From IMG/VR virus record IMGVR_UViG_2690316321_000005: a stretch of DNA of 18,942 nt; one strand, 5' to 3'. Origin of the DNA: a virus (Duplodnaviria > Heunggongvirae > Uroviricota > Caudoviricetes). Positions 4,252 through 4,822 of the stretch are shown one piece after another (the stretch's first letter is position 1; every line of letters starts with the position of its first letter). The notes beneath the pieces are model-generated. The model was not told where the DNA came from and searched no databases. It saw only the letters and a list, made by a program, of their open reading frames with translations. The translations under genes were made by a program, and so were the position numbers.

Positions 4252-4822
4252 TTATGCCGCCTGTTTTAGTTCGTTAACTCTGATGTTCATTACCTGAACG
4301 CATTTAGCCTGCGCCTCCTCGTTGCCAGCCATTAATTGCCAGTCACGCTGATAACGCTCGATGAGTTTTTTCTTGTCAGTTTCTGTTGATGCATAATCGC
4401 TGAAGTCTTTCAGGATTTGTTCGCAGTCAACCGATGGAGATTTCTGGTTGGTATTTTCTGGTGATGGTTTGTTATCTGATGCTGGGATTGCCCATCCCGG
4501 CAGCGATGGAGGGAGCCAGTAAAATCCTGTTCCATCCTTCAGTTTTGCCCTGTGCCACCCCTGCTTTTTATCGAGAGATGTTTGTGCGAAACCTTCCTCA
4601 AGGTTATACAGATACCGACCGATTCCCCACTGAACGGCAGCGCGCTTCATTGCGCCATCCTGCTTTGCCGCAAACATCGTCCAGGCGTTTCATGATTGCC
4701 CTGTTCGTGACATAAGCCAGCACCATAGCCCACACCTTGCCATCGCGTGTTTTACCGCTTTGCTGTATTCGCCATTCGATATCTTCAGGGCTGAATGGCT
4801 CATCGAATTTATTCAAATCCAT
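4252..4822 (-). pseudogene. Rad52/Sak-like single-strand annealing protein, apparently disrupted (frameshift with likely internal deletion)
   Basis: Two overlapping minus-strand ORFs in different frames. 4604..4822 (72 aa) has a proper SD and an annealase-like N-terminus ...FSPEDIEWRIQQSGKT...AMVLAYVTNRAIMKRLDDVCGKAGWRNE. 4252..4677 (141 aa) carries ...AMKRAAVQWGIGRYLYNL... The GW motif and the KRAA..GIGRYLY motif are encoded by nearly the same nucleotides in two frames, so the roughly 40 residues that normally separate them appear to be missing. Confidence 0.45.

Follow-up and report, generated by a model that had tools for sequence, protein, structure and literature searches.

A single repeat-bounded 137-bp deletion probably inactivated the Rad52-family annealase gene in a lineage of Escherichia coli prophages

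The window, that is the whole 18,942-nt stretch of DNA analyzed in this work, represents the early region of a lambdoid E. coli prophage, and on its minus strand, at 4252..4822, it carries a pseudogene of a Rad52/Rad22 family annealase (571 bp in comparison to 708 bp of the intact gene). It is highly probable (about 94 %) that this gene is dead as a result of one real deletion of 137 bp, bounded by a direct repeat and inherited within an E. coli prophage lineage. The deletion is a case of ordinary prophage gene decay, and both fragments of the gene are already present in public databases.

A preliminary description of the locus had listed two ORFs, 4604..4822 and 4252..4677, and assigned them to a Rad52-like annealase split by a frameshift and an internal deletion. 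Both ORFs lie on the minus strand and were placed correctly to the base. The family assignment was borne out by Pfam profile PF04098 (Rad52_Rad22, gathering score 20.3), to which the N-terminal fragment aligned at positions 7-55 of 153 (E 2.4e-10, 41 bits) and the C-terminal fragment at positions 117-153 of 153 (E 1.4e-6, 28.7 bits), both above the cut-off. An intact orthologue matched positions 7-153 uninterruptedly (E 1.1e-25, 90.8 bits), so the frame break lies between profile positions 55 and 117, and the window locus, missing positions 56-116 of 153, does not encode a complete domain. The 72-aa product of 4604..4822 comprises native residues 1-59, ending with DDVCGKAGWRNE, and a 13-aa out-of-frame tail, ARCRSVGNRSVSV, followed by a TAA stop. 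The C-terminal ORF, listed at first as 141 aa, begins with MFAAKQDG and then continues with AMKRAAVQWGIGRYLY; its first 8 codons (MFAAKQDG) are the N-terminal part of the gene read out of frame, and only 4252..4653 is in frame and corresponds to native residues 103-235. The exact look-up of the 141-aa ORF gave no match because gene callers begin this ORF at the second ATG, at 4650, to give a 132-aa protein (NCBI CUA02300.1). The 72-aa and 141-aa ORFs overlap by 74 nt in different frames. They are thus both ends of one annealase gene whose middle part is gone. The frame is disrupted relative to the single-ORF intact orthologues, and the locus is best classified under pseudogenes, as a remnant and not a functional member of the Rad52/Rad22 family.

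The intact allele of E. coli 300081 (locus L001, gene L001:3079-3786, 708 bp, 235 aa) was used as the reference. Its product is annotated as 'Rad52/Rad22 family DNA repair protein' (RefSeq WP_000365280.1) and represents the undamaged form of the window gene in E. coli prophages. The alignment of the window with L001 demonstrated a single gap of 137 bases and no further indels; the 701-bp stretch around the pseudogene is, the deletion aside, 99.2 % identical to that of E. coli 300081. Absent from the window copy are gene nt 178-314, encoding residues 60-103 (44-45 residues). The loss amounts to 45 codons plus 2 nt and, as 137 is not divisible by three, changes the reading frame. The frameshift and the internal deletion proposed for this gene are hence both present, but as one lesion and not as two separate ones, and the spacing of roughly 40 residues given there for these motifs in Rad52-like annealases was close to the actual loss. 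When the segment 4200..4900 was compared by megablast with 5,426 complete E. coli genomes, 363 records were found with at least 80 % query coverage, and the best 30 of them were all two-piece matches spanning 838 bp versus 701 bp in the window, with E. coli 300081 at the top.

In the alleles of L001, L002 and L013 the octamer GCAATGAA is present at gene nt 170 and again, 137 bp further on, at nt 307; in the allele of L014 the repeat is longer (11 bp, GGCGCAATGAA). In the window the deletion junction coincides with the sole remaining copy of GCAATGAA (4646..4653, minus-strand sequence), so that of the two repeats flanking the segment in the intact allele exactly one was kept. Replication slippage and microhomology-mediated deletion typically leave such a footprint, and the window allele is consistent with either mechanism. 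Repeated 8-mers are common in the annealase gene (12 were found versus about 5 expected in shuffled sequence), therefore the GCAATGAA repeat fits slippage without proving the mechanism. The retained octamer codes for (R)NE when read in the N-terminal frame and for AMK when read in the C-terminal one, and it is because of this double reading that the two motifs seem to be coded by overlapping nucleotides in different frames, as had been noticed in the preliminary description. The 137 bp were also considered as an insertion, an intron or an intein of the other alleles; this was rejected, as the segment codes for the most conserved residues of the family.

The following course of events is proposed. 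The ancestral prophage would have had a 708-bp gene that encoded a single-strand annealing protein of the Rad52 fold and had orthologues in Sf6 (gp28), ES18 (gp49), HK75 and mEp235. One deletion would have taken out the 137 bp between the two copies of GCAATGAA, with one copy left behind. Translation from the native start would then give 59 native residues and 13 unrelated ones before reaching a stop, and with the core residues lost a functional annealase could be formed neither from one product nor from two. The deleted allele would have been inherited within one E. coli prophage lineage, integrated beside torS, and the event seems recent.

Conservation within the family was assessed in an alignment of 24 sequences that share 56-90 % identity with the reference. 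Of its 78 invariant columns, 21 fall within the deleted residues 60-103, with P64, G68, V69, C71, G72, S74, E80, T83, K84, W85 and D86 in the first part of the segment and A88, E89, T91, V93, E94, V96, K97, G98, G99, S101 and G102 in the rest; by this alignment no part of the family is more conserved than the missing 44-45 residues. The AlphaFold2 model of the intact orthologue P0031 (mean pLDDT 84) starts with strands 15-24 and 30-38 and helix 40-51, followed by a core of strands 56-62, 68-77 and 80-89 and a long helix, 93-110; past the core there are a short helix (115-119), a small three-stranded sheet within 126-149 and an independently folded C-terminal three-helix bundle (179-234, pLDDT around 90). 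Mapped on this model, the deletion takes most of β3, all of β4-β5 and, of the long helix, the first half; in this family the core β-sheet and the long helix build the ring and the DNA groove. A direct sequence search of PDB with the intact protein and the family profile gave no RAD52 match, so a fold comparison was needed to link the family to solved structures. The top 16 Foldseek matches of the P0031 model in PDB were yeast Mgm101 and human RAD52 (E 1.1e-4 to 5.7e-3, probability 0.97-1.0), in agreement with a Rad52 fold of the predicted structure of the intact orthologue. The sequence and the predicted structure together argue strongly that the locus is unable to make a functional annealase, and the earlier suggestion that the gene is inactivated stands on the internal deletion, the frame shift and the missing conserved core.

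A minor feature of the intact protein lies between the Rad52 core and the C-terminal bundle. Residues 131-162 (GWHRAKLKDGTGFYWLPPSLPGWAIP, window 4474..4569, minus strand) weakly resemble a WW domain: the segment matched the Prp40 WW domain with E 0.1 when searched against PDB as a single sequence and with E 0.033 as a family profile. W148, P151, L153, P154, W156 and P159 are invariant in the annealase family, and three short strands are modelled in this segment. A WW match was absent from the Pfam search of residues 131-162.

Three other explanations of the two-ORF arrangement were weighed against inactivation by a real deletion. The alternative offered in the preliminary description, that the halves are expressed as separate products, would mean a split gene whose two polypeptides, jointly or singly, still provide annealase function. 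It is true that both ORFs are open, that both score as Rad52_Rad22 and that both were annotated by gene callers. However, residues 60-103, comprising most of β3, β4, β5, half of the long helix and 21 invariant positions, are encoded in neither product, and as about 40 % of the conserved domain is gone the two halves find no support as a working annealase. The family is moreover a single-ORF one. The search with the intact protein retrieved 5,594 homologues, and nearly all of those listed at full query coverage were single proteins, 222-252 aa long, of Enterobacterales and their phages. This survey, along with searches for the junction in five collections (see below), led to rejection of a conserved two-gene layout, the two-ORF arrangement being restricted to one lineage. 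Programmed frameshifting or a conserved overlap does not apply either, since 44-45 residues are present in neither frame and the arrangement was not found in the five collections. The chance that the split gene still functions is next to none. The remaining doubt raised at the outset was an indel introduced by assembly: the true genome would be intact and the assembler would have collapsed 137 bp between short repeats, or the sequencing itself would be at fault. A repeat does lie at the boundaries of the deletion and the junction was seen in none of the complete E. coli genomes (no match of a junction 71-mer in 5,426 genomes at E <= 1e-20). Against this, the 8-11 bp repeat is much shorter than any assembler k-mer or read, therefore no repeat collapse is expected, and the usual sequencing errors are 1-bp homopolymer indels, not losses of 137 bp. 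An exact search with the 72-aa product, a sequence that no event other than this deletion could produce, gave nine contigs, among them Logan assemblies of ERR15609620, ERR15609622, ERR15609668 and ERR15609683, and the product is identical to NCBI CUA02304.1, encoded on a 538,900-bp E. coli contig. A 26-nt junction sequence was found in five fetched loci (L003-L006 and L008) from four sequencing runs, which have neighbouring accession numbers and may share a study or strain, so that they count as independent assemblies but perhaps not as independent biological samples. With the junction assembled independently from four runs and the exact product in a separate NCBI genome record, an assembly error is very unlikely, and the deletion can be taken, judging from these independent assemblies, for a real allele.

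The explanation that comes closest to inactivation by deletion accepts that the annealase is dead and supposes that a 132-aa C-terminal product, translated from ATG 4650, keeps the ability to bind a partner, such as SSB, or interferes with related annealases of other phages. The deletion has put a Shine-Dalgarno-like AGGA (4658..4661, minus strand, CAGGATGGCGCA-ATG) 7 nt upstream of this in-frame ATG, and its predicted pairing to the 3' end of 16S rRNA (-6.5 kcal/mol) is on par with that of the native annealase start (-6.9) and of ssb (-5.8), so translation from ATG 4650 could take place. The predicted fragment would contain the end of the long helix, the small β-sheet and the three-helix bundle, the last of which folds independently in the model, and its protein sequence is the same as in the intact alleles. 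In phage λ, moreover, Redβ contacts its exonuclease and SSB through the C-terminal domain. The unchanged sequence is explained equally well by a recent deletion, however, and retention of the ORF in other truncated alleles is an ascertainment effect: these alleles were found by means of this exact C-terminal ORF and are therefore uninformative on selection to retain it. Such a residual activity appears improbable, and there is a slightly fainter chance still that an expressible stand-alone 132-aa protein binds the phage SSB or another partner and thereby acts as a modulator or a dominant-negative inhibitor of related annealases of superinfecting phages. If true, the 132-aa product would make the allele domesticated rather than merely dead.

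Two of the listed homologues, P0035 (211 aa) and P0036 (205 aa), fall 24-30 residues below the family norm at 100 % query coverage, and may be in-frame deletion variants of the annealase.

The deletion, taken as real, could be followed among related sequences. Over 12,822 bp the window and L003 share 99.97 % identity, and in L003 the prophage is integrated beside torS. In phage records the junction gave only two-piece matches spanning 208 bp, i.e. the intact gene, and there were no exact matches in species-representative genomes, viral contigs or metagenome contigs. The undeleted sequence is present in phages HK75, mEpX2, mEp235, N7, Sf6 (gene 28) and ES18 (gp49). Over its N-terminal 177 nt the pseudogene matches the intact E. 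coli 300081 allele with 100 % identity. In the C-terminal 405 nt the real nucleotide differences relative to L001 are all synonymous and the protein is identical to the L001 C-terminus; nt 306 seemed to provide a sixth difference, which is not real, since the two BLAST alignments overlap at the repeat. As the fragments have not drifted since the event, the deletion looks recent and restricted to a single lineage, for which the junction sequence CAGGATGGCGCAATGAAGCGCGCTGC may serve as a marker.

Look-up of the 132-aa C-terminal ORF in E. coli assemblies revealed other broken alleles of the same gene. An IS3-family element adjoins the truncation point at nt 291 in L007 and an IS1 element adjoins the one at nt 208 in L010; L015 and L016 share the truncation point of L010, with no flanking element within their sequence examined. 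The 5' end is truncated at nt 245 in L009 and at nt 186 in L011, the allele of L013 has a stop codon at W81, and that of L014 has lost 1 bp from an A-run at nt 266. L012:1487-2184, an ENA metagenome scaffold, was rejected as a broken allele since it contains a run of 40 N, which is a scaffold gap. The alleles show that the annealase gene is commonly inactivated in prophages, as would be expected where the lysogen has no need for it.

The remainder of the recombination module in the window was preserved. As stated earlier for this locus, the adjacent ssb is intact (3745..4251, minus strand, 168 aa, Pfam SSB, E 1.6e-36), and its protein is identical in the window and in the two intact prophages, L001 and L002. 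The third gene of the module, for an Abc2-like anti-RecBCD protein (3438..3731, minus strand, 97 aa), is also intact, matches Pfam Anti-RecBCD_p2 at 1-97 of 97 (E 2.6e-63) and differs from its L002 counterpart in one residue. It had been proposed that the prophage lost its own recombination function; this holds for the annealase, but the loss is specific to it, as ssb, the Abc2-like gene, ninB and rusA remain. The annealase stop abuts the ssb start (TAAATG), while translation from the native annealase start now terminates 353 nt upstream of ssb. We infer that any translational coupling between the two genes would therefore be lost, unless the C-terminal ORF is translated.

In L001, L007, L011 and L013 a 3'-5' exonuclease gene (Pfam Rv2179c-like) is located between ssb and the anti-RecBCD gene. 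This gene (L001:4302-4850, as against window 3731..3745) is missing from the window and from the intact prophage L002. A second deletion downstream of the annealase was considered and rejected because L002 has the same gene order as the window; the absence of the exonuclease gene is therefore mosaic variation of the recombination module.

The window gene is the same gene as the Rad52-family annealase gene of enterobacterial P22-like and lambdoid phages (Sf6, ES18, HK75, mEp235, mEpX2, N7), labelled in the phage records as 'Erf-like ssDNA annealing protein' or 'Rad52/22 family double-strand break repair protein'. On either side of the junction the window is identical to these phages, and the relatives share the neighbourhood: kil, a small ORF, the annealase, ssb, sometimes the 3'-5' exonuclease, and abc2. 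The window copy differs from the phage and prophage annealases in that it is devoid of nt 178-314, frameshifted and without the domain core. The more distant relatives compared were the N-terminal domain of human RAD52 and yeast mitochondrial Mgm101 (PDB 1KN0, 1H2I, 5XRZ, 8BJM, 9YI9), which are the best fold matches of the predicted model of the intact orthologue, its membership of PF04098 being established by sequence. The sequence identity to them is only 11-16 % and the TM-scores are modest (0.23-0.49). The phage protein has in addition the small β-sheet and the C-terminal three-helix bundle, and the window copy lacks the strands that match the core sheet of RAD52 and Mgm101. Sak of the Lactococcus phage ul36 is the prototype phage Rad52-like annealase, and the Rad52-like superfamily of phage annealases was described in the same work (Lopes et al. 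2010, PMC2896510). According to the literature, Sak belongs to the same superfamily and plays the same role in the phage recombination module, but in another host clade and with other gene partners. In comparison with generic prophage decay, which proceeds by short-repeat deletion, IS insertion and point mutation, the window lesion shares the direct-repeat footprint and has no distinguishing feature.

For annotation, the two ORFs should be recorded as one pseudogene and not as two 'recombinase' proteins, the form in which CUA02304.1 and CUA02300.1 now stand in public records. The torS-adjacent prophage would no longer supply its own Rad52-like annealase. According to De Paepe et al. (2014, PMC3945230), relaxed recombination between phages and defective prophages is driven by recombinases of the Rad52-like class, therefore the capacity of this prophage to generate mosaics should drop. 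Growth in recA hosts should drop too, if prophage growth depends on recombination.

Other parts of the window agree with its assignment to the early region of a lambdoid prophage. It contains int (1..1062), a gene for a cI-like repressor (7295..7945), ea8.5-like and Ead/Ea22-like genes, kil, O and DnaB-type replication genes, ninB, dam, ninX, ybcO, rusA, Q, lysis genes and rha, and for each window gene tested the Pfam profile was covered essentially end to end. Pfam matches were absent for four ORFs encoding 108-252 aa, at 2703..3284 (minus strand), 15161..15919 (plus strand), 16244..16642 (minus strand) and 11071..11397 (plus strand), and in the related prophage L002 their counterparts carry the annotation 'hypothetical protein'. 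Two adjacent small ORFs on the minus strand, 6332..6676 and 6673..7008, occupy the candidate place of the N antiterminator gene, just downstream of the repressor gene and on the same strand. The 111-aa ORF of this pair is an N-like candidate, with a weak match to N_peptide (E 0.0063) that falls below the threshold; the 114-aa ORF has no Pfam match and contains an arginine-rich stretch, SRDRRRIARWEKR. The leftward early operon also accommodates, between the N-like region and cIII/kil, a gene encoding nucleotide modification associated domain 5 (Nmad5; 5573..6256, minus strand, Pfam E 4.9e-71).
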